A stretch of 64,000 nucleotides of DNA, from positions 186,001-250,000 of the forward strand of contig JASTWF010000323.1 of NCBI GenBank assembly GCA_030390025.1. The letters are read 5' to 3'. How positions within the stretch are numbered: the stretch's first letter is position 1; each line of letters begins with the position of its first letter. Shown here in pieces: positions 18,631 through 55,054 of the stretch. The notes beneath the pieces are model-generated. The model ran no database searches. It was given only the letters and a program-made list of their open reading frames with translations, and was not told where the DNA came from. Made by a program: the position numbers and the translations under genes. The DNA comes from Squalus acanthias. Taxonomy: Eukaryota.

Positions 18631-18687
18631 TGACAACAACAACAAAAACTTGCGTTTATATAGCGCCTTTAACTTTTTATGTACTTA

Positions 18688-18803: not shown

Positions 18804-18806
18804 AAA

Positions 18807-30868: not shown

Positions 30869-31708
30869 CTGGATTCATAATATAGAATGAGAAACATGAG
30901 AGAGAGAAGGAGTGGGGAACACCCGAACACATCATCAGGCTGATACAATTGTCCGGAGAATGCCAGACTCCAGACTTTAAATAAGCCATTGCCCTCCAAC
31001 TCCAGTCATCTGATCCACTACAGCCAACTCTTTATGTCACTATAACGTACTCCCCCTCGGTTACTACATCACACAATATTCAGTCACTACAGCCCACATA
31101 CTTGAGTCACTACATCCCACTCTACTCAGTCGCTGCATCCCACTCACCTCAGCTATTACATTCCACTTCCCTCATTCACAACATCCCACTCCCAAGATTC
31201 ATCACATCCCACTCTCCCAATCACTGCATCGCAGCTCCTCAGTCAGTACATCGCACACACCTTAATCAGTAAATCCAATACCCTCAGTCACTAATTTCTC
31301 TCCCTTCAGTCACTACATCCGAATCGCCTCAGTCACCTCATCTCACTCCCTTTAGTCACTAATTCCACGCCCTCAGTTACTGCATTGCACTCCACTAATC
31401 ATTATATCGCACTCGCCTGAGTCACTATATACCACTCTACTCAGTCATCACATCGCACTCTGCTCAGTCACTACACCACTCCCCTCAGACATTGCTACAC
31501 ACTGCCCTCAGACACTGCCTCCCACTCCCCGCAGTCACTGCATCCCAATCCCCTCAGTCTCCTCATCCCACTTCCCACAGTCCGCTCATCCCACAACCCT
31601 CCCTCATTTCATCCCACGCACCGCACTGAGAGACTGGATGAATCTGAGGATTCCAGCAGTTACATTGGGTGAACAGTCTGTGTAGAATGGAATCCACAAG
31701 GCAGATAC

Positions 31709-31804
31709 CTGAGGCTGCAGAGCCTGCTGAGACAGAAGATGTACGGTCAGCGGATTCGCGAGTCGATTGTTCCTCAGGATCCTGAGTTGGAGATGTCTCT
31801 GGAT
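31709..31804 (-). CDS. Stalk repeat exon 4 (96 nt, phase 1 to 1): (D)PETSPTQDPEEQSTRESADRTSSVSAGSAAS
   Basis: Acceptor tctctcttcctttattacag, donor gtatct; open. Confidence 0.85.
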
Positions 31805-32710
31805 CTGTAATAAAGGAAGAGAGACATGGTAGAGTGCAGAGTGGAGCAACAGAACAGGTCATCAGGCTGATACTAGAGCCCAGAAAATGTCAGACATCAG
31901 TCTTTATAAAACAGATAAACATCAAATCCAACTCCCCTCAGTTACTGCATCCCATAACTCTCAGTCAATTCATTGCACATCTTTCAGTTACTGCATCCCA
32001 CTCCCCTCAGTCACTGCAACCCACTCCCCTCAGTAATTGCCTCCCTTTCACCTCAGTCACTGCATCCCACTCCCCTCCATCACTGCATCCCAATACACCC
32101 GGTGACTGAATTCCACTCCCTGCAATCCCCTCAGCCCTCTCCACTCTGGCACTAAATACAACTAGCCTCATTCTCTTCTACCCACTACCTTCAGCCACCT
32201 CGTCCCTCTACATTCAGGCTCCCCATCCCACTCCCTTCAGCGTTCACATCCCACTCGCCTCAGACTCCTCATCTCACTCCCTTCACATCCCTCATCCCAC
32301 TACTCTCAGACTCCTCATTCCACGACTCTCAGTCGCCTCATTCCACTCCCCTCAGAATACACACTCCAACCCGTCCCACTCACCCCTCAGTCTGCTCATC
32401 TCATTCTCCTCAGGCTCCGCATCCCACTTCCCTTAGACACATCATCGCATTACACTAAGAATTCTCATCACAAACCCCTCAGTCTCCTGGTCCCGCACAC
32501 CTCAGTTGCAGCATCCCACTCCCCTCAATCACTACATCCAACTCCGCTTGGGCTCCTCATCCTAATTCCCACAGTCCGCTCATCTCACACCCCTCCTTCA
32601 TTACATCCCACTCCCCTCAATAAGATACTGGATGAATCTGAGGGACTGAGGATGTCAACAGTTAGATTGAGTGAAAAGTCTGTGTAGAATGGACGCCACA
32701 AGGGAGATAC

Positions 32711-32806
32711 CTGAGGTTGCAGACCCTGCTGGGAGAGAAGATGAATGTTCAGCGGATTCTCGAGTGGATTGTTCCTCGGGTTCCTGAGTTGGGGATGTCT
32801 CTGTAT
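32711..32806 (-). CDS. Stalk repeat exon 3 (96 nt): (D)TETSPTQEPEEQSTRESAEHSSSLPAGSATS
   Basis: Acceptor tctttctttattacag, donor gtatct; open. Confidence 0.85.
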
Positions 32807-33275
32807 CTGTAATAAAGAAAGAGACACATGGGAGGGTGCAGTTTCGACAACACCCGAATAGGTCATCAGTCTGGTACTTGGAGAATGCCCGACACCAGTC
32901 TTTATAAAAGAATCATCCAATCCCATTCCCCTTAGTCATTACATCACACTCCCCTCATTCACGACATACCACTCCACTCATTCACTATATGACACTCCCC
33001 TCATTCACTACATCACACTCCACTCATTCACTTCCTTCAACTCCCCTTATTCAGTACACCACACTCTCCTCAATCACTGCATCCCACTCGCTCAGTCAGT
33101 GCATTCAACTATTCTCAGTCGCTGCATCCGAATCCCCTCAGTCTCCTCATCTCACACATGTCAGACAGTAAATCCCACATCACACAGTAAGAGATTGGAT
33201 CAATCTGTGCAACTGAGGATTGCTGCATACTCATTGGGTGAGCAGTCTGTAGAATGGACGCCACAAGGTAGATAC

Positions 33276-33371
33276 CTGAGGCTGTAGTCACCACTGGAAT
33301 AGTGGATGTATGGTCAGCGGATTTGTAAGTCGATTGTTCCGCGGGTTCCTGAGTTGGGGATGTGTCTGGAT
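33276..33371 (-). CDS. Stalk repeat exon 2 (96 nt): (D)PDTSPTQEPAEQSTYKSADHTSTIPVVTTAS
   Basis: Acceptor tctcttcctttctatcag, donor gtatct; open. Confidence 0.85.
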
Positions 33372-33532
33372 CTGATAGAAAGGAAGAGAGACATAGGAGG
33401 GTTCAGAGTGGAGAACAGGCCATCAGGCTGGTACTAGAGTCCGGAGAATTCCCGACATCAGTCTTTATATAGCCCAGAATCATCTAATCCCACTCCCCTA
33501 AATCACTAAATTCCACGTCCCTCAGTCACTGC

Positions 33533-33932
33533 TTTTTTTTATACGTTCCTGGTATGTGGGCGTCGCTGGCAAGGCCAGCATTTATTGCCGAACCCTAACT
33601 GCCCTTCAGAAGATGGTGGTGAGCTGCCTTCTTCAATACAACTGTATGATTTGCTAGGCCATTTCAGAGCGCAGTTAGGAGTCAAATAAATGGGTCTGGA
33701 GCCACATATAGTCCAGACCGGGTAAGGACGGCAGATTTCCTTCCCTAAAGGACATTAGTGAACCGGATTTTTTTTTAATGACAATCTGATAATTTAATGG
33801 ACTAGCTTATAATTCCAGATATTTATTAAATTCCAAAACTGTTGTGGTTGGATTTGATCTCATATTTTCCAGATCATTAGTCCAGGCCTCGGGATTATTA
33901 CTGCAGTAACATAACCACTGTGTTACCGTTAC
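33533..33932 (-). mobile_element. tRNA-derived SINE whose 3' tail matches the LINE at 43478-46072
   Basis: Minus-strand head acacagtggttatgttactg..gagatcaaatccaaccac; tail aataaatgctggccttgccagcgacgcccaca followed by poly(A). Confidence 0.75.
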
Positions 33933-34141
33933 CCCGCATCCAAATCCCCTCAATCCCCTCATCCAACACACGTCAGTCACTGCATCCCGATGCCCTCATT
34001 AAGAGACTGGATGATTCTCTGAAAATGCGATTTCAGAACTTACATTCGGACATTTTATTACTTTAAAATCTCTATATAAATACAAGTTATTGTTGTTGTT
34101 GCTGAACAGTCTGTGTAGAATGGATCCCACAAGGCAGTTAC

Positions 34142-34237
34142 CTGAGCTTGCAGACCATGCTGGTCTAGAGGAGAAACGGTTAGCAGGTTCACGAGTCGAC
34201 TGTTCCTCGGGTTCCTGATTTGGGAATGTCTTGGGAT
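34142..34237 (-). CDS. Stalk repeat exon 1 (96 nt): (D)PKTFPNQEPEEQSTREPANRFSSRPAWSASS
   Basis: Acceptor cctctgttcctatattacag, donor gtaact; open. Confidence 0.85.
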
Positions 34238-34859
34238 CTGTAATATAGGAACAGAGGCATGGGAGAGTGCAGAGTGGGGAACACCAGAACAGGTCATCAG
34301 GCTGGTATTAGAGTCTGGTGAATGTCAGACACCAGTCTTTATAAAACGCAGAATCATCAAATCCCATTCCCCATGACCCAGAAAGCCTGTAGATGGATCG
34401 TGCGGTGTTCAGCACTACACTGGGGGTCTATCGCGATCAGTGGGCACCGCAGGGAACAGAGTGTCAGATAGACTCGGAGAAAAGCGTTTGATTCAGCTCC
34501 CTATAGCTTTGAGGAAAAGTACAATTTGTGTTTCAGTTCCTTTATTCGTTGTGCCCCTTTCAACAATGCGGGGTGCTACATAATTTTGTTTTTCTGTTGA
34601 TGACACGGGACATCCCAGAGTCACCCTTCTGGATCATTTCAAAACGGACGTGTTTGCTCGCAACACCCAAAGCACTAATTGGTCCCCTTGGATGACGAGC
34701 CTGATTGCTGATTGGTCCAATTGGAGGACAAGACTGCCTACTGCAGACAGAACAGAGCGCACCTGCAACAGACAGGACTCACCCTCGTGGGTTAAGACCT
34801 TCTCCCACCCGCAAACATGTTCCTGCTCCCACAGCCCAAATTACTGATCAACTAACGCC

Positions 34860-37800
34860 ACCCAAGTTCCTGACCTCCCTCCAACCAAGTTCCTGACATT
34901 CTCCGCCGGTGCAATTTCTTGACCTCCGCCCATCAAAGTTACTGACCTCCACCCCCAGCGCGAGTTCCTGACCTTATCCCCCGGTACGATTCCTGAACTT
35001 CTCTGCAGCCCCGCCCCACCCCCCCCCCCCCGAGTTACTGCCCCCCGCGAGTTGCTGACCTTCTGTCCCACACCCAGTTCCTGACCTTCTCGAACCCCCG
35101 AGTTCCGAAATTCTCTCTCCCCCAAACCAAGTTCCTGAGCTTCTCTCCCCCTCCCAATTTCCTGCACATCACTCCCCCAATTCCTGACCTTCTCACCCTC
35201 CTCCTACCCGCGTCCCTGACCATCACTCCCACGCGAGGTCCTGACGTATTCTCCCCCACCGAGTTCCTGACCTTCTCTCCCACCTGAGTTCCTGAACTTC
35301 TCATCCCCCCCGAGTTCCTGAGCCTATATCCGTCCCACCCCAGTTCCTGACCTTCTCTATCACCCCCCCCCCCCGAGTTCCTGACCTTGTTCCTCCACCT
35401 GATTTACGGACCTTCTCTCCCCCCACCCCGAGTTCCTGACCTTATCGCCCTCCCACCCGAGTTCCTGACCTTCTCTCCCCTCCCCCCGAGTTCATGACCT
35501 TCTCCCCTTCCCCTGATTTTCGGACCTACTCTCCCCCCACCCCGAGTTCCTGATCTTTTCTCTCCCCACCCCGAGCTACTGACCTTATCGCCCTCCACAC
35601 GAGTTCCTCAGCTTCTCTTTCCGCCCGAGTTCCTGATCTTCTCCCCCAATTGATATTCCGACCATATCTCCCACCACCCCGAGTTCCTGACCTTCTCTCC
35701 AACCAGCTCGAGTTCCTGACCTTCTCACATCCTCACCCGAATTCCTGACCTTTCCCCCCCCAACCCGAGTTCCTGACCATCTCACCTCCTCACCCGAATT
35801 CCTGACCTTCTCCATTCCCCGAGTTCCTTACCTTCTCACTCCACCCCAACAACCCCAGGTCCTGACCTCCTCTCCCGCCGCCCCTGAGATCTTTATCTTC
35901 TCGCCCCGCGGCTTCCTGACCTTCACTCACCATCCCTGATTTCCTGACTTTCTCTCTCCTCCCTCCCACCTCTTGAGATCCTGACGTTCAATCAGATTCT
36001 CCACCACCGCGGAATTCCTGACTTTCTATTAAAAACCACAAACCACGCAACACCTCGAGTTCCTGAAATTGTCTCTTCAATCCTCACCCCCATTCGGGTT
36101 CCTGAACTGTATTCACTCCCCAAAGTTCCTGACATTCTCTCCCCGTTCCCCGGAGATCCTTACGTTCTACCCTACCCGAGTTCATGACCGTCTCATCCAC
36201 TCGCCCGAGTTCCTGATCTTCACTCCCCAACATCACCCCCACAAGTTCCTGATTTTCTCTGCACCTCCACGATTTCCTGACCTTCTCTCAGCCCACCCTA
36301 ATTCCTGACTTTCTCTCTCTCACCACACCCAAGAATTCCTGACCTTCTCTCCCTCCTCCGAGTTCCTGACGTTATTCCCCCTCACGAGTTGCTGACCTTC
36401 TCAACCCCACCCCCGAGTTCCTGACATTCTCAACCCCCAAGTTATTGACCTTCTCGCCCAACCTTCCGAGTCCCTGTCGTTATTGCCCCCTCCCGAGTCG
36501 CTGACCTTCTCAACCCCCAAATTCCTGACCTTCTCTCCAAAACCCGATTTAATTACCTTCTCTCCCCTCCCCCTGAATTACTGATCATCTCTCCCATGCC
36601 CCCTCCACCGAGTTCCTGTCCTTCTCACGCCCGTGGTATCTGACTTTCTCCCACCCAGCGAGTTCCTGACATTCTCTCTCTCCCCCCAGATTCCTGATCT
36701 TCTCTTCCCCTCCGAGTTCCTAACCTTCTCCTTCTCCCCCCAAGTTCCTGACATTCCCGCTCACCTCCGAGTTCCTGTCCTTCTCTCTCCCCCACCCCGA
36801 GTTTCTTTCCTTCTCTCTCCACCCACCCCCACCCCCCGAATTCCTGTCCTTCTCTAACACCCACCCCCCGTGTTCCTGTCCTCGCGCTCCCCCCGAGTTC
36901 CTGTCGTTCTCTCCCCCCCCCGAGATCCTGTACTTCTCTCTGCCCCCCCAGACTTCCTGTCCTTCTCTCTCTCCCTCCCCCCGAGATCCTGTCATTCTCT
37001 CTTCACCCCCGAGTTCCTGTCCTTCATTCGCCCCCCCCCCCCATCAGTTCCTGTCCTTCTCTCTCCCCCACCCGAGTTCCTGTCCTTCTCTCTCCCCCGC
37101 ACCAGCGAGTTCCGGTCCTTCTATCTCCCCACCCCCGTGTTACTGTCCTTCTCTCTCCCACCCCCCGAGTTCCTGTCCTTCACTCTCCCCCCCACCCTCC
37201 GAGTTCATGTCCTTCTCTCTCCCCACCACCCCCCCCCCCGGGTTCCTGTCATTCTCTCTTCCCCCCCGAGTTCCTGTCCTTCTCTCGACCCCCCCACTTC
37301 CTGTCCTTCTCTCCCCCATCCCCGAGTTCCTGTCCTTCTCGCTCCCCCCGAGTTCCTGTCCATCTCTGCCCCCCCCGAGATCCTGTCCTTCTCTCTACCA
37401 CCCCCCGAGTTCCTATACTTCTCTCTCCCACCCCCCGAGTTCCTGTCCTTCTCTCTCCCCCCTCCGAGTTGCTGACCTTCTCTCCCACTCCGAGTTCCTG
37501 TCCTTCTCTCTCCCTCCTCCGAGTTCCTGACCTTCTCTCCCCTCTTCGAGTTCCTGTTCTTCTCTCTCCACCCACCGAGTTCCTGTCCTACTCTCTCCCC
37601 CCACCGAGTTCCTGTCTTTCTCTCTCCCCACCCCGAGTTCCTGTCATTCTCTCTCCCACCCACCCGAGTTCCTGTCCTTTCTCTCCCCCCTCCGAGATCC
37701 TGCCCTTCTCTCTACCCCTCCGAGTTCCTGTCCTTCTCTCCCCCCCCCGAGTTCCTGTCCTTCCTTCTCCCCCTTCTCCGAGTTCCTGTCGTTCTCTCTC

Positions 37801-38330
37801 CCGCACCCTGCACGATTTCCTGTCCTTCTCTCTCTCCCCCTCACCGAGTTACTGTCCTTCTCTCCCCCCCACGAGTTCCTTTCCTTCTCTCTCGCCCCTC
37901 CGAGTTCCTGTCCTTCTCTCTCCCACCCTCTGAGTTCCTGTCCTTCTCTCTCGCCCCCTCCGAGTTCCTGTCCTTTTCTCTGCCCCCCCCCGAGTTCCTG
38001 TCCTTCTCTCTCCCCCCGAGTCCCTGACCTTCTCTCCCGCCCCCGAGTTCCTGTCCTTCTCGCCCCCCCCTGAGTTCCTGTCCTTCTCTCTCCCCCCTCC
38101 GAGTTCCTGTCCTTCTCTCTCTCCCGCCCCCGAGCACCTGACCTTCTCTCTCTCCCGCCCCCGAGTACCTGTCCTTTTCTCTCCCCTCCGAGTTCCTGAC
38201 CTTTTCTCTCCACGTCCCGCGTTCCTGACCTTCTCTCCAACCCCCGAGTTCATGACCTTCACTCCCTCCCCGCGAGTTCCTGACCTTATCTCCGCCCCCA
38301 CCCCTGAGTTCCTGATCTTTGCCCCCCCTA
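34860..38330. repeat. ~27-30-bp pyrimidine-rich satellite (CCCGAGTTCCTG[A/T]CCTTCTCTCCCC), intronic
   Basis: More than 100 copies of the gagttcctg core. Confidence 0.95.
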
Positions 38331-38341
38331 CCCCAATGTAC

Positions 38342-38505
38342 CTGTACAATAAGCCATGTTACACCTGTATGCCGGCTTCAACTCATAAACAAAGTAAGTG
38401 GTGCAGTTTTTGATCTTTATCTTCACGGTCGCTTCACAGTGATTTCCAGCCCCGGTAAAACAAACTTTCCTCTCCACTTCTCCATCTCCCACGGTGGGAT
38501 GAGAC
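38342..38505 (-). CDS. D8C module 2, exon C: HPTVGDGEVERKVCFTGAGNHCEATVKIKIKNCTTYFVYELKPAYRCNMAYCT (apparent 1-nt deletion at the exon start)
   Basis: Aligns to the UMOD/GP2 D8C C-half (HP..G.V.R..C..C..VK.C..YYVY.L..C..AYCT); 164 nt versus 165 nt in the paralogous exon. Confidence 0.85.
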
Positions 38506-38598
38506 CTGAAACGAGGTTTGTAAATATTGAAGAATGTAAGCGAGGTGAACAGTGCTGGACAGTGAATGTAAATCTGAGATTATAAAGTCTGAAATTAC

Positions 38599-38675
38599 CG
38601 TTTAACCAGCCCGAGAGGTGTGTGGAGCAGTGAAGGTGTGTAACCTGAGTCTCGGGAATCTCCCATCCACCAGAA
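38599..38675 (-). CDS. D8C module 2, exon B (77 nt, phase 2 to 1): SGGWEIPETQVTHLHCSTHLSGWLN
   Basis: Acceptor ttgttcttccag, donor gtaatt; matches UMOD GG.RM.ET....RC.T..P.WLNG. Confidence 0.88.
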
Positions 38676-38969
38676 CTGGAAGAACAATTAAAGAGTCAGC
38701 CCTGAACTGATGACTCATAATAACTGACAGAAAGAAAAGGAACTGATTGGTCAGTAAAGATCACACCGTATTTCTGGTCTTCAAGTTAGGGGCTGGGGTG
38801 AAATAGTTGCTTCGGGTTAAAGCTGGATCTTGGAGTTTAGTATTAATACTATATTAATTTAGTAACAGTTAATACTGTATTAAATTATTAACTGTTAATT
38901 AGATATGATATTACTAATTTTAATTAGGTACCCCTTAGTCTAAAGTTTATGTAAAGTTAGTTAATAGTC

Positions 38970-41900
38970 CAATAAATGGAGGCATGGCAGGGCTGCTCAG
39001 TCCCATGGAATGCACTTCCTGCGCCATGTGCGGATTTCCAGGACGCTTCCCGTGTCCTGGACAACCACGTGTGCAACAGATGTTGTCAGCTGGAGGAGCT
39101 CGAGCTCCGGGTTTCGGAGCTTGAGCAGCCGCTGGCGTCAGTGCGGTGCATCCGCCAGGCTGAGAGCTACGTGGATAGCACGTTTCTGGAATTGGTCACC
39201 ACGCTGCTAAGGAGTGAACAGGCAGAGTAGGAATGCGTGACCCACAGACGGAAGAGGAGTTCCAGGCAGTTAGTGCAGGAGTCCCCTGAGTGCTTACCTG
39301 TTCTGAGTACAGGAGAGGACAATGGTTCCTCTGGGGAGTACAGCCAGGTCAATTCCATGTCACCACAGGTATCTCAGCTGTACAGGGGTGGGATCAGGAA
39401 GATAGGGAAAGCAATAGTGGCAGGGGCTTCGAGTTAGGGGATCAGACAGGCGTTTCTGCGACCGCAGAATTTACTCCAGGATGTTATGTCGTCTCCCTGG
39501 TTCCAGGGTTAAGGATGTCACTGAGTGGCTGCAGAACATTCTGAGGGGGGGAAGCTGAACAGCCCGAGGTCGTGGTCCATATCGCTACTGACAACATATG
39601 TAGAAGGAGGGATGAGGTCCTGCAGCACATTTTAGGGATCGAGGAAATAAATTAAAAAGCAGGACCGCAAAGGTTGTAATCTCTGGAATACTACCGGTGG
39701 CACACGCGAGTGAGTATAGCAATTGAGGGATAGAGGAGATGAATGCGTGGCTGGAGGAATGGTGCAGTAGGGAGGGCTTCAGATTCCTGGGGCATTGCGG
39801 CCTGTTCTGGGGAAGGTGAGACCCTGTACAGGCCGGCAGGTTACACCTCAACAGAGGCGGTACAAATATGCTCGCGGGGATGTTTGCTCGTGCTGTTGGA
39901 GAGGGTTTAAACTAGGTTGGCAGTGTGATGGGCCCCGGATGTAGCATTAGTAAGGAGAAACAAAGGGCACAAATGATTGCGAGAGATGGATAGAGCTAAA
40001 GTAAGAAACAGTAAGATATTAGGTGGTGTCAGACTAAAAGAGAACACAGGATGGTCTACGACAGGTTTACAGTGTATGTATGTGAACGCACGAAGCATAG
40101 TAAACAATGTTGGTGAGCTGCAGGCGCAAATAGCCACATGGGAGCATGATGTTTTGGCAACAAAGGATACCTAGCTCAAACAAGTGCAGGATTGGGTATT
40201 AAATAGTTCTAGTTGTAAGTAGTTCAGGAAAGATATGGAAGGAAAGATATGAGGTAGTGAAGGAGAATTTTACAGTGCTGGAGAGAAAGGATGTCCTGGA
40301 GGTTTCAAGGACAGAATCTATATAGATTGAGATAAGAAATAATAGTGTATTCTATCGGCCACCAAATATTGGCAAAAATATGGTGGAGCCAATTTTGCAG
40401 AGAAATTACAGTGAGATGCAAGAACTATGGAGTAGTGATAATGGGGGACTTCAACAATCCTAATATAGACTGGGATAGTAATATTGTAAAGGGCAGAGAG
40501 GGGGAAGAATTTCTGAAGTGTGTTCAGGGGAACTTTCATGATCAGTATCTTCTTGCCAAAAGAGGAAGGAGGCAATGCTGGTTCTGGTTCTGGGGAATGA
40601 GGTCGGTCAAGTGGAGTAAGTGCCACTGGGTAAATATTTAGGGAACAGTGATCATAGTATCATAATGCGGAGATGCGGGTGTTGGACTGGAGTGGACAAA
40701 AGTGAGAAGTCGCACAACAAGGTCCCTCTGATCCTCTGTCCTTCCTAGGGTCCTACCATTCATTGTGTTTTCCCTTGCCTTGTTAGTCCACCCTAAATGC
40801 ATCACCTCACATTTTTCAGGTTATATTCCATGTGTCACCGTTCTGCACATCTGACCAACCCGTCTATATTGTCCTGTAGCCTGAAGCATCCCTCCCCGCT
40901 ATTTACCACTGCACCAATTTTCGTGTCATCTGCGAACGTACTGATCATACCTCCTACATTCATATCTAAATCATTAATGTACACTACAAACAGCAATGGG
41001 CCCATCACCGATCCCTGCGGTACGCCACTGGAAACAGGCTTCCAGTCACAAAAACAACCTTCGAACATCACCCTCTGCCTCCTGCCACTAAGCCAAATTT
41101 GGATCCAATGTGCCAAATTGCCCTGAATGCCATTAGAGTCCAAAAAGGAGAACTTCGCATGGAGGTAGAGGGCATGGTTCAGGTGAGAAATGAGCACTTT
41201 GCAGCTGTCTTCACCAAGGAATAACATGCTGCCATAGACATAGTGAAGGATGAGTTAAAGGAAATACAGGATGGGATAAAAATTGATAAAGAGACGGTAC
41301 TAGAAAGGCTGGCGGTACTTAATGTAGGTAAGTCACCAGGACCAGATGGGATGCATCCTAGGACGCTGAGGGGAGTGAAGGAAGAAATCACAGAGGTTCA
41401 GGCCGTAATCTTCCAATACTCGTTCGAAACGGGGTTGGTGCCAGAGGACTGGAGAATTGAAAAAGTTACTACCTTGTACAAAAAAGTGAGTAAAGATAAA
41501 TTCAGCAACTGCAAGCCAATCTGCTTAAACTCGGTATTGGGGAAGCATTTAGAAATAATAATCAGGATCAAAATTAACAGTCACTTGGACAAGTGTGGAT
41601 TAATTTAGGAAGGCCAGCACGGATCTTTTCAAGGCAAATCGTGTTCAACTATCATTGATCATTTTTTGATGAGGTAACAGAGAGGGTTGATGAGGGCAAT
41701 GCGGTTGACGTGGTGTACCTGGATTTTCAAAAGGCATTCGACATAGTGCCACGTCATAGTGTTGCCAGCAAAGCTGAAGCCCATAGGATAAAAGGGACAA
41801 TAGCAGCATGGACACAACATTGGCTAAGTGACAGGAATCAGAGAGTAGTGGTGAACGGTTGTTTGTCGGACTGAAGGAAGGCATACAGTGGTGTTTCCCA

Positions 41901-42866
41901 GGGTCGGTTCTAGGACCACTATTTTTCTAGATATATATTAACGAATTGGATGTGCGTGTACAGGGCCCAATTTCAAAATTTGCACATGATACAATACTTG
42001 GAATTATAGTGAACAGTGAAGAGGATAGTGATGGACTTCAAGAGGACAGAGACAGGCTGGTGGAATGGGCGGACATTTGCAGATTAAATTTATTGCAGAA
42101 AACTGCGAAGTGATACATTTTGGTCGAAAAGAAGAGCAGAGGAATTATAACCTAAAGGGTACAAACCTAAAGGGAGAACAACGGATACATGTGCTTAAAT
42201 CGTTTAACTTGGCAGGACAGATTGAAAAAGCTTACGGAATATTTTGCTTTTTAAATAGAGGTATAGAGTATAAAGCATGGAAATTATTTCGAACTTGTAT
42301 AATACACTCGTTCGGCCTCAAATGGAGTATTGTGTCCAATTCAGGGCACTGTACTCGATGAAATTTGTGAATACCTTAGCGAGGTGCAGAAAAGATTTAA
42401 GAGAATGTTTCCAGGGATGAGGGACTTCAGTTACGTGGATTGACTGGAGAAACAGGCGTTGTTCTCCTTAGAGCAGAAAAGATTGAGAGGAGATTTGAAA
42501 AAGGCGTTGAAAATGAGGAGAGGTCTGCACAGAGTAGACAGAGAGAAACGGTACCCATTGGCAGCAGGGTTGAGAACAAGAGGACACAAATTTAAGGTGA
42601 TTGGCAAAAGAACCAAAGGCGACAAAGGAAAAAAATACTCAGCGAGTTGTTAGGATCTGGAATGCATTGCCTGAAACTTTGGTGAAGGCAGACTCAATCA
42701 CATCTTTCAGAAGGGAGTTGGATGAGCACCTGAAAGAAAATAAATGCAGGGCTACGGGGAAAGGGCAGGAGATTGGGATTAACTGAAGTGCTCTTGCAGA
42801 GAACCGGTATTGTCTCGACGGGCCGAAAATCCTTCTTCCGTGCTGTAACAATTCTATGATTCTATG
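38970..42866 (+). mobile_element. Near full-length decayed CR1 LINE (ORF1 zinc finger + esterase, ORF2), interrupted at ~40666-41133 by an inverted CR1 fragment
   Basis: CxxC motifs, SGNH esterase-like ORF1, APE and RT motifs; 3' end ttctatgattctatga. Confidence 0.9.
40720..41133 (-). mobile_element. Inverted CR1 RT fragment nested in the CR1
   Basis: Peptide SGVPQGSVMGPLLFVVYINDLD..FADDTK. Confidence 0.9.
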
Positions 42867-42899
42867 AAAGACTGGGACCCGCAGAGAGTATTGTAAACT

Positions 42900-43120
42900 G
42901 GGGTCCATCCTTTACTCTCTGTTCTCGATCTATATTCCTCTCTATTCCGAATAACTCCCTTTACTTCTGTTCTCGATCTATATTTCCCTCTATTCCGGGT
43001 ATCTCCCTTTACTCTCTGTCCCCGTGCTATAACCCCCTCTATCCTAGGTATCCCCTTTACTCTCTGTCCCCGTTCTATATCCCTCTCTAACCTGGGATTC
43101 TCCCTTTACACACTGTTTCT
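42900..43120. repeat. ~49-bp minisatellite (ccctttactctctgtccccgttctatattcctctctatcccgggtatct)
   Basis: 4-5 copies; a longer paralogous array lies at 53340-53880. Confidence 0.8.
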
Positions 43121-43291
43121 CTATAGAGACCGGTTGTTCAAATTTCGCTATATCCACTCCCTGTCCAATTGCTCTGAATGATTATCTCTGTCTCCCTGCA
43201 GTAAGCATTCCTACTCGCAACCTTTATTCGCTTTTGTACATTTACTCCTCGCTTATCGACTAGTTTATCATTAAATTTCCACTCACATTAC

Positions 43292-43430
43292 CTTTTAAAT
43301 CTGTACCATCCGTAGGCAACATCCCAATCACATTTCTTTTGTTTATAGCACTGAGTCCCACTACAGTCCGTGCTCCTCCAGGGCTGGTTCAGGACTGTGT
43401 GATGTTCACACGGCTCAGTGAGTGCGGAGT
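43292..43430 (-). CDS. D8C module 2, exon A (139 nt, phase 1 to 2): (D)SALTEPCEHHTVLNQPWRSTDCSGTQCYKQKKCDWDVAYGWYRFK
   Basis: Acceptor ctttctgtcactcagtcccag, donor AAG|gtaatg; matches UMOD DPC..H..L...WRST.....CD....GWYRF. Confidence 0.9.
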
Positions 43431-43477
43431 CTGGGACTGAGTGACAGAAAGATTTTTAATGTTAATATAAAATAATA

Positions 43478-46072
43478 AGAAAGAAACCGGACGGACCACC
43501 CGGCATCGACATCGGCACCGGCTACGGACATGGCACGCCCAGCCCAATCTACCCTGCAAAGTCCTCCTCACCAACATCTGGGGATTGTGCCAAAATTGGG
43601 AGAGCTGTCCCACAGACTAGTCAAACAACAGCCTGACATAGTCATACTCACAGAATCATACATTTCAGTAAATGTCCCAAACTCCTCCATCACCATCCTC
43701 AGTTATGTCATGTCCCAGCAGCAGGGCAGACCCACCAGGAGTGGCCGCACCGTGGTATACAGTCGGAAAGGAGTGGGCTTGGGGGTCCTCAACATTGACT
43801 CCGGACCCCATGAAGTCTCATGGCTTCAGGTCAAGCATGGGGAAGGAAACCTTCTGCTGATTACTACCTACCTCCCTGATGAATCTGTATTCCACCTTGT
43901 TGCACACCACTTGAAGAAGCACTAAAAATAGCAAGGACACATAATGTACTCTGGGTGGGAGACTTCAATGTCCAACACCAAGAATGGCTCAGTAGCACCA
44001 CTATTGACCGAGCTGGCCACGTCCTGAAGGACATAACTGCCAGTCTGGGCCTACGACAGGTGGTGAGAGAACCAACACAAGGGAAAAACCTACTTGATCC
44101 CGTCCTCACCAATCTACCTGTCACAGATGCAACTGTACATGACAGTATTGGTAGCAGTGACAACTGCACAGTCATTGTGGAGACGAAGTCCCGTCTTCAC
44201 ACTGAGGACACCCTCCCTCCTGTTGTGTGGCACTGCCACTGTGCTAAATGGGATAGATTCAGAACAGATCTAGCAGCTCGAAAATGGGCATCCATGAGGC
44301 GCTGTGGGACATCAGCAGAACTGAATTCAAACCCAATCTGTAACCTCATGGACCGGCATATCCCTCACTCTACCATTACCATCAAGCCAGGGGACCAACC
44401 CTGGTTCAATAAGGAGTGTAGAAGAGCATGCCAGGAGCAGGACGAGGCACATCTAAAAATGAGGTGCCAAACTGGGGAAGCTGCAACACAGGACTCTATG
44501 CATGCTAAAAGGATCAAGCAACATGCTACAGACAGGGGTAAGAGATCCCACAATTAACGGATCAGATCAATGCTCTGCAGTCCTGCCACATCCTGTCGTG
44601 AATGGTGGTGGACCATTAAACAACTAACGGGAGGAGGAGGCTTCTTGAATATCCTCATCCTTAATGATGGTGGAGCCCAGCACGTGAGTGCAAAAGAAAA
44701 GACTGAAGCGTTTTCAACCATGTTCAGCCAGAAGTGCCGAGTTGCTGATCCATATCGGCCTCCTCCTGAGGTCCCCAAAATCACAGAACCCAGCTTTCAG
44801 CCAATTCGATTCACTTCACGTGATATCATGAAACGGCTCAGCGCCTTGGATACATCAAAAGCTATGGGCCCTGACAACATTGCGGCTATCATGCTGAAGA
44901 CATGTGCTCCAGAACAAGCCGCGCCTCTAGACAAGCTGCTCCAGTACAGCTACAACACTGGCATCTATCCGATAATGTGAAAAACTGCCCAGGAATGCCC
45001 TGTCCTCAAAAAGCAGGGCAAATCTAAACCGGCCAATTACTGCCCCATCAGTCTTCTCTCAATCATCAGCAAAGTGATGGAAGGTGTCACCGTCAGTGCT
45101 ATTAGCGGCACTTACTCAACAGGAACCTGCTCACTGATGCCCAGTTTGGGTTTCGCCAAGACCACTCTGCTCCACACATCATTACAGTCTTTTTCCGAAC
45201 ATGGACAAAGGAGCTGATTTCCAGACGTGAAGTGAGAGTGACAGCCCTAGACTTCAAGGCAGCATTTGACCGAGTGTGGCATGAAGGAGCCATAGTAAAA
45301 CTGAGGTCAATGGGAATCGGGGGAAAAACTCTCCACTGGCTGGAGTCTTACCCAGCACAAAGGAAAATGGTTGTGGTGATAGAAGGTCAATTATCACAGC
45401 ACTAGACAAAGCCGTTCGCCAGAAACGTCACTGGGCCAGACACATAAATACTGTGGAAACAAGAGCAGGTCAGAGGCTAGGTATTCTGTGGCGAGTGTCT
45501 AACCTCCTGACTCCCCAAAGCCTTTCTACCATCTACAAGGCAAAAGTAAGGAGTGTGATGGAATACTCTCCACTTGCCTGGATGAGTGCAACACAAACAA
45601 CACTCAAGAAGCTTGAAATCATGCAGGACAAAGCAGCCCGCTTGATTGCCACCCCATCCACCACCTCAAAGATTCACTCCCTCCACCACCGGCGCACCGT
45701 GGATGCAGTGTGTACTATCTACAAGATGCACTGAAGCAACTCGCCAAGGCTTCTTCTGCAGCACCTCACACACCCGCGACCTCTTCCACCTAGAAGGACA
45801 AGGGCAGCAGGCGCATGGGAACACCACCACCTCCAAGTTCCTCTCCAAGTCACACACCATCCTAACTTAGAAGTATATCGCCAATCCTTCATCGTCGCTG
45901 GGTCAAAATCCTAGAACTCCATACCTAACTGCACTGTGGGAGTATATTCACCACACGGACTGCAGCGTTTCAAGAAGGCGGATCACCACCACCTTCTCGG
46001 GGGCAATCAGGGATCGGCAATAAATGCTGGCCTTGCCAGCGACGCCCACATCACACAAACGAATAAAAAAAT
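43478..46072 (+). mobile_element. Non-LTR retrotransposon (APE + RT, CR1/jockey group, distinct from the HER1-like CR1s), decayed, with an internal deletion in RT
   Basis: Peptides PDIVILTES, GDFN..H.EW, GPDNI and ALDFKAAFDRVWH; 3' AATAAA and poly(A); absent from the paralogous duplication copy. Confidence 0.88.
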
Positions 46073-46605
46073 AAAGATCAGTTAATATTACACAGCGGCT
46101 TGTAACACCCGAAGCAGCAATAACCTCAGTCTCACTCTCCGCCCTGGTAGAAAATCACCCAAATTAAAGCTGGAAACTTGTCAACTTCTGTAAGCCAGGT
46201 TTCAATCTGTCTCCCAGCCCAGCCTTTAGCTCACTGCTCACAGACAGTCCTCCCTATTCTAGATTGACCCTTAGCTCTCAGGTAACAGAAAGCAGCAGTA
46301 ACTTCAGCTTCACTTCGTCCAATAGAAAAGCTGCAAATTTAAAGCTGGAATTTAGCGAGTCTCTAAATAGGCTTTAATCTACGTCACTGAAATTTGGTTT
46401 CCGTTTTACTTCTATTAACACAGAGATTCGGGAAGTTCAACTTACTCTCACCCATTCTCTCCCTCCTCACAGACTGATCTCTCTGTTCTACATTAACTGT
46501 TATGTCCAGCTACAGAACGCCGTGTGCCCGAGTAAGTTTCAAGCTGCAGTTCCCGCGGGAACCTCCAACATTTGGGACCCTCCTCCTGCATCTGCAGACT
46601 GAGCT

Positions 46606-46895
46606 GGTGAACAGAGTGCAGATGGTGAGGGACACTCAATGGTCAGTGAGAGATATCCTGAGGTTTCTCTGTCCCCAGGAGAACACTGAGTGCAGATGGT
46701 GAGGGGCACTCGATGGTCAGTGAGTGATATCATGGGGTATCTCAGTCCCCAGGTAAACAGAGTAGAGATGGTGAGGGACACTCGAAGGTCAGTGAGAGAT
46801 ATCCTGAGGTTTCTCAGTCCCCAGGTAAACAGAGTAGAGATGGTGAGGGACACTCGAAGGTCAGTGAAAGATGTCATGGGATATCTCAGTCCTGG
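46606..46895. repeat. 72-74-bp minisatellite, 4 copies (3 copies at 54776-54997)
   Basis: Unit gatggtgagggacactcgatggtcagtgagagatatc..gtcccca. Confidence 0.9.
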
Positions 46896-47089
46896 GGTGA
46901 AATTAGATTAAAATAACTGTATTTTGCTGATTCTCCATTTAGAAAATTATAAAATTATATATGTATAGATATTGAATATATTAATGCTGAATATATAATA
47001 AATTGGAAGATGAATATCAAAGATATTTTAATAATATATTATAAAAATTGCAAGATATATATTCTGATTGAAATACTGAATATATGAAT

Positions 47090-47845
47090 GTCATGGCATC
47101 ATGGAATAGTACAGCACTGAAGGAGGTCATTCGGCACATCGCGTCTGCGCTGGCTCTTTCGAATATAAATAGAGTTAGCCCCACTCCCCGATCTTTCCCC
47201 ATAACCAGCATTTTTTCTCTTTCAATATTTTACACAATTCCATTTTGAAGACTGCTACTGAATCTGTTTCCATCACCGTATCAGGCAGTGCTTTCCCAAA
47301 CATGTTCTACCAGCACGTAAACAGAAAGCGCGCAGTAAGAAGCGGGGTGGGGCCTATTAGAGACAAAGAAGGTGATATATGCTTAGAGGCGCAGGCAAGG
47401 CGCGAATACACAATGAGTACTTTGTAACGGTGTTTACTAAGGAAGTGGATGCTGACAAAATATCGGTAGAAGTGGAAACGGTACAAGGAATTGAAGGGCT
47501 GAAAATTGACAGTCAGGATGTACTAGAAAGGCTGGGTATGCTTAGAGTGGACAAGTCGCCTGGTCTAGATGGCTGGCAACCCAGGTTGCTAAAGGAATTG
47601 GGGGAGGAGATAGCTGAAGTAAATGTTCCTCATGTTCTCCTTCCAAGCACATTAAATCTGTGTCCTCTGATTACCGACCCTTCAGCCACTGGAAACAGTT
47701 TCTCCTTATTCACTCTATTAAAACCAGTCATGATATTGAACACATCAATAAAATATCCCGTAATACTCTCTGCTCTAATTGACAAATCCCAGCTTATCCA
47801 GTCTCTCCACACAACTGAAGTCCCTCATACATGGCACCATTCTGC
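47090..47845 (-). mobile_element. CR1 3' end on the minus strand, interrupted by a + strand CR1 fragment (~47300-47620)
   Basis: Reverse CR1 tail; internal LRVDKSPGLDG peptide on the + strand. Confidence 0.75.
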
Positions 47846-48244
47846 TTCTTCCCGATTCCATTACCTAAAAATGTCCTCTCAGCATCACCTCAAAACTGAC
47901 ACATTACTGACACGGAAGAGATTGAACCTGTAAATATTCTGAAACTAACACTCAGTCTCATTAAAGTTCCAGCCATGGTGATGCTTGAATTGCAGTTTAA
48001 ATGCAGAGAACATCGCAGTTCCTTTACTCTCCCAGTGTCAGCGGGTGAGCAGCAGTGAGGTTCTGGGTCATTGACATCCGGTCAGGGGACTCGCAGTGTC
48101 CCGTATCCTGGTTACAAAAACAATCTCCCAGTAAGATCCCATCTGGAATTCTGTGTTCAATTCTGAGCAGAGCAACTCAGGAAGGACATATTGGCCATCA
48201 CTCCAACGCCACCCCTACCCCCAAAATTCCTTATCTTCTCTCCA

Positions 48245-48670
48245 CTGCCGAGTTCCTGACCTTTGCCCCCCGACTTCCTGACCTATGCCCTCGAGTTCCT
48301 GGCCTTTGCCCCCCGAGTTCCTGGCCTTTGCCCCCTCAGAGTTCCTGACTTTTGTCCCCTCAGAGTTCCTGACTTTTGTCCCCCCATTTCCTTACCTTTA
48401 CCTCCCGATTCCCTGACCTTTGTCACCCGATTTCCTTAACTTTGCCTCCTCGCGAGTTCCTGACCTCCCCCCGCCCCCGTTCCTGACCTTTGCCTTCATC
48501 GAGTTCCTGAACATTGCTCCACCCCGATTTCCGGACCTTTGCCACCCACGGATTTCATGACCTATGTCCCACCGTGTTCCTGACCTTTTTGCCCACCCCC
48601 CGATTTCCTGACCTTTGCCACCACCCCCGCGAGTTCCTGAGCTTTCCCCGCTCCCCCCCCCCCGCCACCC
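48245..48670. repeat. Short paralog of the gagttcctgacc satellite
   Basis: Same core and same position relative to D8C exon C as the 34860-38330 array. Confidence 0.9.
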
Positions 48671-48678
48671 CCATGTAC

Positions 48679-48843
48679 CTGTGCAATAAGCCATGTTATA
48701 CCCGGGTGCCGGCTTCAACTCATAAACGAAGTAACTGCTGCAGTTTTTGATCTTTATCTCCCGGTTCCTGTGACAGGGATTTACAAACCCGGTAAAACAA
48801 ACTGTCCTCTCCACTTCTCCCTGTCCAACGGTGGGATGTGCAC
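48679..48843 (-). CDS. D8C module 1, exon C (165 nt, phase 1 to 1): AHPTVGQGEVERTVCFTGFVNPCHRNREIKIKNCSSYFVYELKPAPGYNMAYCT
   Basis: Acceptor cctcgtttcag, donor CAG|gtacat; open; D8C C-half. Confidence 0.9.
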
Positions 48844-48936
48844 CTGAAACGAGGTTTGTAAATACTGAAGAATGTAACCGAGGTGAACAGTGCTGGACAG
48901 TGAATGTAAATCTGAGATTATAAAGTCTGTAATTAC

Positions 48937-49013
48937 CCTTTAACCAGCCTGGGCGGCCTGTGGAGCAGCGACGGACTGAAACCGGAGTCTCTGGAATCTC
49001 CCATCCACCAGAA
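48937..49013 (-). CDS. D8C module 1, exon B (77 nt): SGGWEIPETPVSVRRCSTGRPGWLK
   Basis: Acceptor ttgttgttccag, donor gtaatt; open. Confidence 0.9.
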
Positions 49014-49174
49014 CTGGAACAACAATCACAGAGTCAGCCCCTGAACTGATGGCTCTTATTAACTGACAGAAAGACTGGGAACTGACTGGTTGGTAAAGGT
49101 CACACCGTGTTTCTGCTCTTCAAGTTAGGGGCCGGGGTTAAATAGTTGGTTAGTGTTAAAGCTGGAGCTTGGAG

Positions 49175-49335
49175 ATTAGTAACTGTTAATACTACATTAA
49201 ATTAGTTACTGTTAATACCACGTTAAATTAGTAACTGTAAATACTATATTAAATTAGTAACTGTTAATACTACGTTAAATTAGTAACTGTTAATACTCTA
49301 TTAAATTAGTAAGTGTTAATAACATATATTAATAA
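49175..49335. repeat. 26-bp AT-rich minisatellite (gttaatactatattaaattagtaact); shorter paralog at ~38840-38925
   Basis: About 6 copies. Confidence 0.8.
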
Positions 49336-49389
49336 CTTCAATTGGGTACCCACGTAGAGTTAGTAAAGTTAGGTAATAGTCAAATAAGT

Positions 49390-52300: not shown

Positions 52301-53303
52301 GGACTGGAGGAAGTTATACAGTGGTTTTCCCCAGGGGTCAGTTGTAGGAACACTGATTTTCTTGATAAATATTAAAGTCTTGGATGTGGGTGTACAGGGC
52401 ACAATTCAAAATTTGCTCATGGCACGAACTTGTAAGTATTGTGGACAGTGAGAAGGATAGTCATATAATTCAAGAGGGCATAGTCAGGCTGGTGGAATGG
52501 GCGGACAGGTGGCAGATGAAATTTAATGCAGAAAAGTGCGAATTAATACATTCTGGTAGAAATAATGGGGAGATGAAATATAAACTAAAGTGTACAATCC
52601 TAAAGTGGGTGCATGAACAGAGAGGCCATGGGGTATATGTGCACAAATCGTTGAAGTTGGCAGTACAGATTGAAATAGCATCATGAATAGAGGTATAGAG
52701 TAAAAAGCCTGGATATTATGATGAAACTGTCTAAAACATTGTTTCGGCCTCAACTGGAGTATTGTGTCCAATCCTGGGCACCGCGATTTAGGAAGAAAAT
52801 AAAGGCCTTAGATAGGCTGCGGAAAAGATTTACAAGAATGTTCCCAGGTAGAAGGAACTTCCGTTACGTCGATAGACTGGAGAAGCTGGGGTTGTTCTCC
52901 TTAGAGCAGAGAAGATTGAGAGGAGTTTTGATAGAGTTGTTCAAAATCATGAGGGGTCTGGACAGAGTAGATAGAGTGAAACGGTTCCCATTGGCAGAAG
53001 GGTCGAGAAACAGAGGACACAGATTTAAGGTGATTGGCAGAAGAACCAAAGGCGACATAGGCAAAACTTTTTTACTCAGCGAGTTCTTAAAATCTGTAAT
53101 GCAAAGCCTGAAAGGTTGGGGGAGTCATACTTAATAACAGCTTTCAGGAGGGAGTGGGATAAGTACCCGAAGGAAAAATATTTGCAGGACTACGGGGAAA
53201 GGGCGGGTGAGTGAACTAACTGAAGTGATCTTGCAAAGAGCTGGCACGCGTTCGACGGGCCAAATGGCCTTCTTCCGTGCTGTAACCATTCTATGATTCT
53301 ATG
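49390..53303 (+). mobile_element. Near full-length decayed CR1 LINE (paralog of 38970-42866)
   Basis: ORF1 esterase CLPGA..GLLPVP..NAWLERWCRREGF..GLHLN; APE ITETWL; RT YMDFQKAFDK; tail ttctatgattctatga. Confidence 0.92.
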
Positions 53304-53339
53304 AAAGATTGGGAACCACATAGAGTACCGGAAACCGGG

Positions 53340-54053: not shown

Positions 54054-54198
54054 CTTTTAAATCTGTACCATCCTTGAACAAGATCGTTATCACACTTCGA
54101 GTCCCACCCATCGATGCACTGAGTCTCAATGCAGTCCGTGCTCCTCCAGGTGTCCTCCAGGACTGTGTGATGTTCACACGGGTCCGTGAGTGCGGAGT
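54054..54198 (-). CDS. D8C module 1, exon A (145 nt, phase 1 to 2): (D)SALTDPCEHHTVLEDTWRSTDCIETQCIDGWDSKCDNDLVQGWYRFK
   Basis: Acceptor ttttgtcactcagtcgcag, donor AAG|gtaacg; open; DPC..WRST..CD.DL..GWYRF signature. Confidence 0.9.
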
Positions 54199-55054
54199 CT
54201 GCGACTGAGTGACAAAATCATGTTTCATGTTAAAATAAAGTACAATTAATGTTACACAGCGACTTGTACCCCCCGAAGCACCAATAACCTCAGTCTCACT
54301 CTCCGGCCTGGTAGAAAATCCCCAAAATGAAAGCTGGAAACAATCCTCCTTCTCTAAACCAGATTTCCATCTGGCTCCCAGCCCAGCCTCCCCTCTAACT
54401 CAGTGCTCACAGAGTGACATCAATATTCTAGATGAACCCTTAGTCCCAGTTAACAGAAAACAACAAAAACCTCAGCTTCACTTGGTCCAATAGAAATGCT
54501 GCAAATTTAAAGCTGGAATTTAGCTATTGTGTAAACCAGGATTTGTTCTGTACCCCAAAATGTTGGGCTCCGTTTTACTTCTATTAACACAGAGAATCAG
54601 GATGTCCGGCTCGGTCTCACCCTCTCCCTCCCTCCTCACAGACTGATCTCTCTGTTCTACATTAACTGATATGGCCCAGCTACAGAACGCCATGTGCCCG
54701 GGTAAGTTACAGGCAGCAGTTCCCGCGGGCAACGCCAACATTTGGGACCCACCTCCTGCACCTGGAGACTGAGCTGGTGAACACTGAGTGCAGATGGTAA
54801 GGGGCACTCGATGGTCAGTGAGAGATATCATGGGATATCTCAGTCCCCAGGTGAACACTGAGTGCAGATGGTGAAGTACACTCCATGGTCAGTGAGAGAT
54901 ATCATGGGGTATCTCAGGCCCCAGGTGAACACTGAATGCAGATGGTGAGGGACACTCGATGGTCAGTGAGAGATATCATGGGGTATCTCTGTCCTGGGAT
55001 GAAATTCGATTAAAATAACTTTCTGTTGTTGTTTCTTAATTGATAAATCAATAA

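Follow-up and report, generated by a model that had tools for sequence, protein, structure and literature searches.

The 64,000-nucleotide stretch of Squalus acanthias analysed here (contig JASTWF010000323.1, positions 186,001 to 250,000, hereafter the window) is eukaryotic DNA with many satellites and transposon debris. Its minus strand is the coding one and carries two tandem cassettes of three exons each (A, B and C), which are related to the D8C domain of uromodulin and GP2 and belong to a large family in the genome of this shark. In this family a small set of codons holds almost all of the diversity, while the DNA around them, including a 93-nucleotide (nt) intron, is nearly the same from one cassette to the next. 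Such a pattern is typical of proteins whose targets of recognition keep changing.

In the upstream cassette ('copy 2') exon A is found at 54054..54204 (151 nt, entered in phase 1 and left in phase 2), as placed by splice junctions, tblastn and the family alignment. Its product reads (V)ADSALTDPC...GWYRFK, with a hypervariable patch sitting between cysteines. Exon B (48937..49013, 77 nt) encodes SGGWEIPET..CST...GWLKG and carries the hypervariable patches HV1 and HV2, and exon C (48679..48843, 165 nt, phase 1 at entry and exit) gives a Pfam match to D8C_UMOD and carries HV3 and HV4. The two are separated by the 93-nt B-C intron (48844..48936), which is nearly invariant family-wide, and the final 60 nt or so of the A-B intron before exon B (49014..49073) are conserved like this short intron. 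The downstream cassette ('copy 1') consists of exon A at 43292..43436 (145 nt, in frame and 6 nt less than its upstream counterpart), exon B at 38599..38675 (77 nt), a B-C intron at 38506..38598 (93 nt) and exon C at 38342..38505 (164 nt, one T having been lost after the acceptor). The B-C intron has the borders GTAATT...TTTCAG in both cassettes. An intact cassette amounts to 393 nt and has phase 1 at both ends.

Since exon C ends and exon A starts in phase 1, and since the junction between the cassettes reads 'YCT-V-(A/P)DSALT' as it does between the domains of shark homologs, the two copies are two cassettes of one minus-strand gene. In the tblastn search with shark proteins one D8C unit falls at 54.2-48.7 kb, another at 43.4-38.3 kb and the linker exons at 34.3-31.6 kb. 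The latter are four repeated exon-like open reading frames (ORFs; 31617..34307, minus strand), recognized by tblastn and by direct repeats, which encode a Ser/Thr/Glu-rich linker ('DPETSPTQEPEEQSTRES...') and match the mucin-like repeats located after the D8C domains in the shark homologs. It is these linker exons, and not ZP exons, that tblastn found downstream of the window cassettes. Further on, a stretch at 29425-29469 of the minus strand ('MKGQFQNECPQTQSE') weakly matches 'MKHMFQDQCPHTKLE', a C-terminal piece conserved in the shark homologs (53% in 15 residues, with E = 0.04-0.07), and may be the last coding exon of the gene.

Self-comparison of the window showed that the tandem duplication has a period of about 10.3 kb and comprises arms at 37896-40665 and 48288-51109 (77% identity), at 41157-43115 and 51610-53554 (79%) and at 46068-46820 and 54232-54994 (84%). 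The long A-B intron includes a reverse-transcriptase fragment of a long interspersed nuclear element (LINE; 40838..41254, minus strand, Pfam RVT_1, E = 6.3e-8), which is common to both cassettes and was part of the neutral background used below.

The minus-strand ORF at 48674-49033 scored 34 bits with Pfam D8C_UMOD (PF23283; cut-off 27, E = 3.4e-8) and the ORF of the downstream unit scored 30.2 bits against the same cut-off, while exon A alone gave no Pfam D8C match. A search with exon C retrieved eight shark proteins that carry the names 'uncharacterized protein' or 'GP2-like' and come from Mustelus, Cetorhinus and Heterodontus. These homologs have a signal peptide, one to three tandem D8C domains, Ser/Thr-rich repeats of the 'EEQSTRES' type and a short C-terminal piece. 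As to an EGF IV domain or a ZP module, Pfam found D8C_UMOD alone in all five homologs considered (P0001, P0002, P0003, P0006 and P0007). Among public proteins, 2,903 representatives are related to the shark D8C protein at E <= 0.001, and some of these D8C relatives (P0009, P0010) contain 11-17 D8C stretches per protein of 2,000-2,900 residues, so that very long proteins with many D8C domains occur elsewhere.

The fold was examined on the single-domain shark homolog P0007 and not on the spliced product of the window. By phmmer P0007 matched GP2 (7P6R) with E = 2e-23, and uromodulin was also matched. Its AlphaFold model, made from a 25-sequence alignment, had a predicted local distance difference test score (pLDDT) of 90-98 across the D8C domain. 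The top Foldseek matches were 7P6S/R/T and UMOD chains (E = 6.7e-16 to 4.5e-13, root-mean-square deviation (rmsd) 1.2-1.9 A), the best being 7P6S with E = 6.7e-16, an rmsd of 1.2 A over 130 columns and 39% identity; the first unrelated match had E = 0.77. The D10C domain is described in PMC8930769 as having ten conserved cysteines paired C1-C8, C2-C9, C3-C6, C4-C10 and C5-C7. The shark sequence has no Cys at C3 and C6 and keeps 8 of the 10 canonical positions, and it has two extra Cys between C1 and C2, in the loop that corresponds to the variable patch of exon A. The shark domain is a variant of D8C/D10C, and the altered cysteine set is no ground for its exclusion.

An earlier note on this DNA had claimed, from a comparison of the two cassettes, that their exons diverge faster than the intron between them. 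The counts given in it were exact. Between the two B-C introns there are 3 differences in 93 positions. In exon B 13 of 77 positions are different; one codon is altered synonymously (CCC/CCA), and replacements affect 9 of 25 residues. The peptides quoted from exons A and C are all present in the sequence. Exon C differs at 26 of 164 aligned positions, and exon A shows 6 synonymous and 24 non-synonymous differences plus the in-frame length difference of 6 nt. Of 5309 aligned non-coding positions of the pair, with the shared LINE included, 1002 are different (18.9%; 18.3% when CpG sites are left out). Against this background the probability of three or fewer differences in 93 is 6.6e-6 (1.1e-5 without CpG), and only 4 of 5,519 fully aligned 93-nt windows have so few; these start at 48934-48937 and are the intron itself. 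CpG depletion was ruled out as the cause of the conservation, the non-CpG background being still 18.3%.

The interpretation of these counts is a different matter. The exons of the pair are 16-22% different, which is the level of the non-coding DNA, and the A-B intron of about 5 kb diverges as fast as they do, so the claim that introns are less diverged than exons holds for the 93-nt intron and fails for the long one. The pairwise ratio of non-synonymous to synonymous change (dN/dS, or omega) by the method of Nei and Gojobori was 0.92 for exon A, 1.91 for exon B, 1.52 for exon C and 1.29 for all three together (12 synonymous and 57 non-synonymous differences). The last value, which the note had proposed as a check, is not significant (one-sided Fisher p = 0.27) and indicates nothing beyond neutrality; the synonymous and non-synonymous proportions (pS 0.152, pN 0.191) stand beside 0.189 for non-coding DNA. 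The contrast between exons and intron in the pair thus arises because the short intron is abnormally conserved, not because the exons are fast, and a short intron within a multigene family is no neutral yardstick. Taken by itself, the pair could be accounted for by neutral drift together with an intron that is conserved or converted. The situation that the note had set against its own proposal, that of an intron homogenised by conversion next to exons at neutral divergence, very nearly describes these two cassettes but does not describe the family.

A piece covering exon B, the short intron and exon C has at least 151 candidate matches in the 3.7-Gb genome, and all 40 that were scored are 90-100% identical. 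Exon A has 143 first-look candidate matches in the same genome, and a 48-nt framework piece of exon C has 130 genomic matches at three mismatches or fewer, which puts the family at roughly 130 cassettes. The matches are found in arrays with a spacing of 12-16 kb across many mid-sized contigs. The family alignment comprises 41 units, that is the two window units and 39 paralogs (of which 20 cover about 8 kb each and the other 19 cover 960 nt) which are the best-scoring of the at least 151 candidates. Exons B and C are intact in 33 of the 41 units and broken in the other eight. Among nine sequencing runs listed (shares 0.05-0.10), the kind of which could only be guessed, none was of RNA. Four of them yielded at 88% likeness DNA-like short contigs, mostly on transposon parts, and among these no joint that removes the 93-nt intron was found; one 270-nt read contig crosses 48815-49084 unspliced.

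In this alignment 21 of the 80 codons of exons B and C are hypervariable and hold almost all of the diversity. Exon B has a mean pairwise diversity of 0.12 and exon C one of 0.107, but at the 21 codons diversity reaches 0.40, 0.39 and 0.15 at codon positions 1, 2 and 3, against 0.035, 0.038 and 0.045 at the other 59. In diversity the hypervariable codons exceed neutral DNA 2.5-3 times, and it is at replacement positions that this excess is seen. They form four patches in exons B and C, and together with one or two in exon A the patches take up about a quarter of the codons. In exon A, too, a patch of this kind lies between cysteines, and the exon comes in lengths of 145, 151 and 157 nt, which keep the frame in 25 of 28 units.

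The tests of selection were made on exons B and C of the 31 unique intact cassettes. The Nei-Gojobori method (NG86) gave pN 0.122, pS 0.076 and an omega of 1.68, and in a codon bootstrap pN-pS was zero or less in 1.3% of 2000 replicates. Under the one-ratio codon model M0 omega was 2.24, with a log likelihood (lnL) of -2118.556 that equals the IQ-TREE GY+F3X4 value. The site model M2a (lnL -1944.20) was strongly preferred over M1a (lnL -2046.08), the likelihood-ratio test (LRT) statistic being 203.8, with w2 = 8.7 for a proportion p2 = 0.26 of the sites and 20 codons having a posterior above 0.95. As recombination can inflate such tests, the analysis was re-run on three partitions with their own trees, and these gave omegas of 2.45, 2.74 and 2.74 and LRT statistics of 99.1, 53.0 and 41.3. 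When hypervariable codons were chosen in one half of the sequences and measured in the other, their omega was 3.45 (range 2.63-4.79 in 40 splits). A dN/dS significantly above 1 was therefore found for exons B and C of the family, and neither for the window pair nor for exon A as a whole. The proposal of the earlier note, that variable loops on a D8C scaffold are under positive selection, stands by way of the family and the site models it had suggested, and not by way of the intron argument on which it was built.

Residue 60+k of P0007 is the counterpart of codon k in exons B and C, and the selected codons could in this way be placed on the model that matches GP2. They concentrate in the coil 62-79, at the hairpin tip 104-108 and in the loop 129-135. 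In detail, the selected residues are 70, 73 and 74 in the inter-strand coil, 79-81, 85 and 87 at the edges of strand 80-85, position 97 in a strand, 104-106, 108, 110 and 113 in the tip region of the long beta-hairpin, and 131-133, 135 and 136 in the loop before the last strand. The loops expected by the note are thus the main location, although some sites are at strand edges and one is a strand position. Being mostly loops and a beta-hairpin tip, the selected patches would probably form a variable recognition surface.

In the motif 'GWL(N/K)G(S/A/P)HP' an N-G-S sequon spans the B-C splice junction (48940-48946 / 48838-48843; codons 25-27). It is present in 13 of the 33 intact units and both of its variable codons are among the positively selected sites. 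The sequon aligns with N122 of GP2 ('WLNGT'), which is glycosylated in the crystal structure, and it appears that an N-glycan is turned on in some cassettes and off in others. The glycan bound by FimH is not that of the 'WLNG(S/T)' sequon; PMC8930769 places it at UMOD N275 / GP2 R165, and no claim of a decoy glycan is made here. The residue aligned with it is Glu in the shark.

The second feature of the family is the uniformity of what surrounds the patches. Nucleotide diversity (pi) is 0.023 in the short intron, 0.026 in the proximal 60-nt flank, and 0.045 at third and 0.035 at first and second positions of the framework codons, but it rises to 0.109 in the next 100 nt upstream (distal flank) and to 0.13-0.14 in the long intron, the core segments having between a third and a fifth of the diversity of the non-coding DNA around them. 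Measured as divergence from the upstream cassette over 20 loci, the means are 13.7% for the long intron and 3.2% for the short one. A 48-nt intron core has 115 genomic copies at three mismatches or fewer, 52 of them exact, in comparison with 12 copies of a 48-mer from the region 115-160 nt upstream of exon B. All 41 units have an intron of 93 nt that starts with GTAATT, and in 39 of them it ends with TTTCAG. Third positions within the patches (0.15) are at the level of DNA that is not homogenised. Some pairs of units have no difference in 159-160 nt of flank and yet disagree at 8-10 positions within an exon piece of 76-95 nt. Uniform silent sites cannot be put down to purifying selection on the protein, and splicing signals cannot explain a whole 93-nt intron of the same length in 41 of 41 units.

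We consider it likely, with some confidence, that diversifying selection acts on patches of the D8C cassettes within a core kept uniform most likely by gene conversion, and that the product is likely a secreted defence or decoy protein. Each cassette encodes one D8C/D10C domain of the uromodulin/GP2 type, in a gene that continues into the Ser/Thr-rich linker exons. Strong diversifying selection would act on about a quarter of the codons, arranged in patches. The rest of the B-intron-C core of about 0.4 kb, with its silent third positions, its intron and some 60 nt of the intron upstream, is near-identical among cassettes, and the likeliest cause would be short-tract gene conversion, that is concerted evolution. 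The homogenisation would end at the flanking minisatellites (26-nt and 27-29-nt) and the transposon debris, and selection would keep the patches diverse against it. By homology with the GP2/UMOD decoys and the omcins of teleosts, the role is most likely that of a secreted, mucin-stalked mucosal defence or decoy protein.

Several results weigh against this explanation. The first of them is the window pair itself, with its exons at the background level and its non-significant dN/dS. The 39 paralogs were picked by their likeness to the upstream cassette and are a biased sample. The site models were run with pruning code of our own, with branch-length proportions fixed from M0 and without a recombination model, and exon A as a whole has a family omega of 0.91 (18 sequences). 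Neither tblastn nor a regular expression located a signal-peptide exon in the window or in 59 loci. Gene conversion is not directly demonstrated, because a test of the pairwise homoplasy index (PHI) type showed no effect of distance on site incompatibility (0.508 observed against 0.505 permuted, with 1216 of 2000 permutations at or below the observed value). A test of conversion by shared alleles was uninformative, as both alleles of exon differences do recur in other units but would do so in any case at highly polymorphic sites. In the downstream cassette the intron is better kept than what surrounds it, with 1 of 93 positions off the consensus in the intron, 12 of 177 in the framework of the exons and 7 of 60 in the proximal flank.

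Both cassettes of the window gene, moreover, look damaged, which is a further point on the same side. In downstream exon C the single T is missing just past the acceptor (CAG|G-TCTC) and the frame of exon B runs into a stop, which makes this a pseudo-cassette unless it is skipped. The same deletion (window 38505) occurs in paralog L010 on another contig, that is in 2 of the 41 units, and reflects either an old broken lineage or a defect copied by conversion. In the upstream cassette the conserved Cys C9 is replaced by Tyr. Given the frameshift in one cassette and the loss of a disulfide cysteine in the other, the window gene may be decaying.

Of the other explanations the one that survives best, although we consider it rather unlikely, is that the 93-nt intron is conserved for a sequence-specific function of its own, be it dense splicing enhancers that pair the 77-nt exon B with the right exon C in a gene of near-identical cassettes or a regulatory element, and not by conversion. 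The intron is the most conserved 93-nt window of the duplication, and its length and donor border are invariant in the 41 units, its acceptor border nearly so. That it is better kept than its neighbours in the downstream cassette, the most diverged unit, hints at something intron-specific, and the PHI-type test gave no sign of exchange by tracts. Against such a function, the framework third positions and the 60 nt upstream of exon B are nearly as uniform as the intron, which points to a regional process, and the intron is kept as well in broken units as in intact ones (0.88 against 1.24 differences from the consensus, in 8 and 33 units respectively). Nor does the intron have a stable RNA fold. 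As a structured RNA it was rejected, with a minimum free energy of -4.9 kcal/mol (z = +1.0) and an Rfam match of 14 bits that is due to chance, the gathering score being 65.

The intron amounts to 31 codons and is free of stops in the frame of exon B in 41 of 41 units, and in the upstream cassette exon B, intron and exon C read as one ORF. A retained intron serving as coding sequence was nevertheless rejected, the homolog proteins and GP2 being contiguous across 'WLNG|SHP'.

Little credence can be given to neutral decay with local conversion, according to which both cassettes are pseudogenes whose exons drift and whose intron was overwritten by a recent short tract. The frameshift, the lost Cys C9, the pair divergence at background level with its non-significant dN/dS, the 8 broken units of 41 and the signal-peptide exon that was not found are all what it would predict. 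At the level of the family it is refuted, however, since exons B and C are intact in 33 of 41 units, the framework codons are far more conserved while the 21 hypervariable codons are 2.5-3 times more diverse than neutral DNA, the LRT statistics are 204 overall and 41-99 by partition, and the conservation of the intron in 115 genomic copies goes well beyond this pair.

Least credible of all is that the diversity of the patches is a mere input of local mutation or micro-conversion (templated exchange, slippage) at hot spots and not of selection: synonymous diversity is indeed raised at the hypervariable codons (pS 0.12 against 0.061 in the framework), 40% of the informative site pairs are incompatible, there are 26-31 distinct haplotypes per patch among 41 units with moderate Mantel correlations between patches (r 0.24-0.52), and the patches of exon A carry indels, but mutation alone would give an omega near 1 and not the 3.4-4.1 observed at the hypervariable codons, the diversity of third positions is 2.6-fold below that of first and second ones, and in 25 of 28 units the lengths of the indels are divisible by three. 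The variation may well stem from exchange of patches, but what is retained of it still calls for selection. With selection on the patches as the preferred explanation, a quarter of the sites have an omega of about 9, which is among the strongest codon-level diversifying selection that can be measured, and the family offers a clean natural case of homogenisation and diversifying selection coexisting inside 400 bp.

Uromodulin and GP2 are single-copy decoys of mammals that trap bacterial adhesins. Their decoy module, a beta-hairpin with the D10C/D8C domain (PDB 7P6R/S/T and 7PFP), is the same domain as that of the shark cassettes. The sequence 'WLNG|xHP' is contiguous in GP2, and an intron sits inside its shark counterpart. 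Unlike GP2 and UMOD, the shark proteins have no EGF IV domain, ZP module or glycosylphosphatidylinositol (GPI) signal, and consist of one to three D8C units on a Ser/Thr-rich linker with a C-terminal piece that has no family assignment. The cysteines C3 and C6, which form one disulfide in GP2, are missing in the shark, which has instead the extra Cys pair in the C1-C2 loop. In copy number the contrast is between one gene in mammals and about 130 cassettes in the shark.

In the accelerated-evolution families of toxins, such as the phospholipase A2 (PLA2) isozymes of pit-viper venom and the toxins of cone snails, non-coding DNA is more conserved than coding DNA between paralogs, dN/dS exceeds 1 and the changes are focused on exposed residues of a disulfide-rich scaffold. 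The shark family differs in that only the short intron and the sequence close to the exons are conserved. As the long intron diverges at the rate of the exons, the contrast in the shark reflects the homogenisation of a small core as much as an acceleration of the exons. There is also no evidence of a venom or toxin function for this family. Gene conversion and diversifying selection are found together in immune families, for example in the peptide-binding regions of the major histocompatibility complex (MHC), where paralogs share short variable motifs in a mosaic manner and the replacement excess is at ligand-contacting codons within homogenised sequence. The shark fold is unrelated to that of MHC, and conversion is not demonstrated in the shark given the negative PHI-type test.

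A modest expansion of the same module is seen in the teleost omcins, which PMC11415648 describes as a lineage-specific tandem expansion of multi-D10C genes related to UMOD and GP2 (omc1-15 in zebrafish), with 1 to more than 15 genes per species, and which its authors term teleost-specific. According to the same source, omcins have five D10C domains, an EGF IV domain, a ZP module and a GPI anchor, and omc5 is induced by E. coli, its loss leading to lower survival upon bacterial exposure. Neither hypervariable patches nor selection tests are reported in the part of PMC11415648 consulted. In comparison with omcins the shark family is without the ZP part, has about ten times the size and shows hypervariability by patches. 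No description of the shark D8C family or of its hypervariability was found in the literature searched, which did not cover subscription journals. The domain and the tandem multi-D10C expansion of teleosts with an antibacterial role are already known, whereas hypervariability by patches was not found described.

A bolder proposal, which we put forward as doubtful, is that sharks carry a germline repertoire, not described before, of some 130 hypervariable D10C 'decoy/receptor' cassettes, secreted on mucin-like stalks, whose patches are continually reshuffled by patch-wise gene conversion, with the intron and the framework as homology anchors. It would make of the uromodulin/GP2 fold an innate diversity system parallel to other diversified immune-type families. 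If expressed at mucosal surfaces, this would be a new diversified recognition family in the oldest jawed vertebrates.

Minisatellites are found on both sides of the core. Directly downstream of exon C of the downstream cassette there is a 27-29-nt minisatellite at 34860..38320, and a shorter array of the same kind (48220-48660) is placed behind the upstream cassette; it is here that the conserved core ends. This minisatellite is C-rich ('CCGAGTTCCTGACCTTCTC...') and starts a few bases past the exon C donor in both cassettes and in paralogs; its length is very variable (3.4 kb at 34860-38320, 0.4 kb at 48220-48660). The frame of upstream exon C is open into it, giving a 211-residue ORF at 48401-49033. 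On the other side, about 160 nt upstream of exon B, there is a 26-nt AT-rich minisatellite (49175-49321 and 38843-38905), which is kilobases long in many paralogous loci. The 48-mer that adjoins it is also found on large chromosomes, and this stretch of the A-B intron is probably derived from a transposon.

Elsewhere in the window, two adjacent and unrelated 27-nt satellites at 352-9214 (about 8.9 kb, 63% internal matches) and 9267-17136 (7.9 kb, 87%) together occupy the first 17 kb. Of the transposon-rich part of the A-B intron there is a third copy at 17586-21073, which is partial, has no D8C exon and is 68-71% identical to 39.9-42.8 kb and 50.3-53.3 kb. At the other end, a 53-nt AT-rich satellite with at least 37 copies starts at 62051 and extends past the end of the window at 64000.

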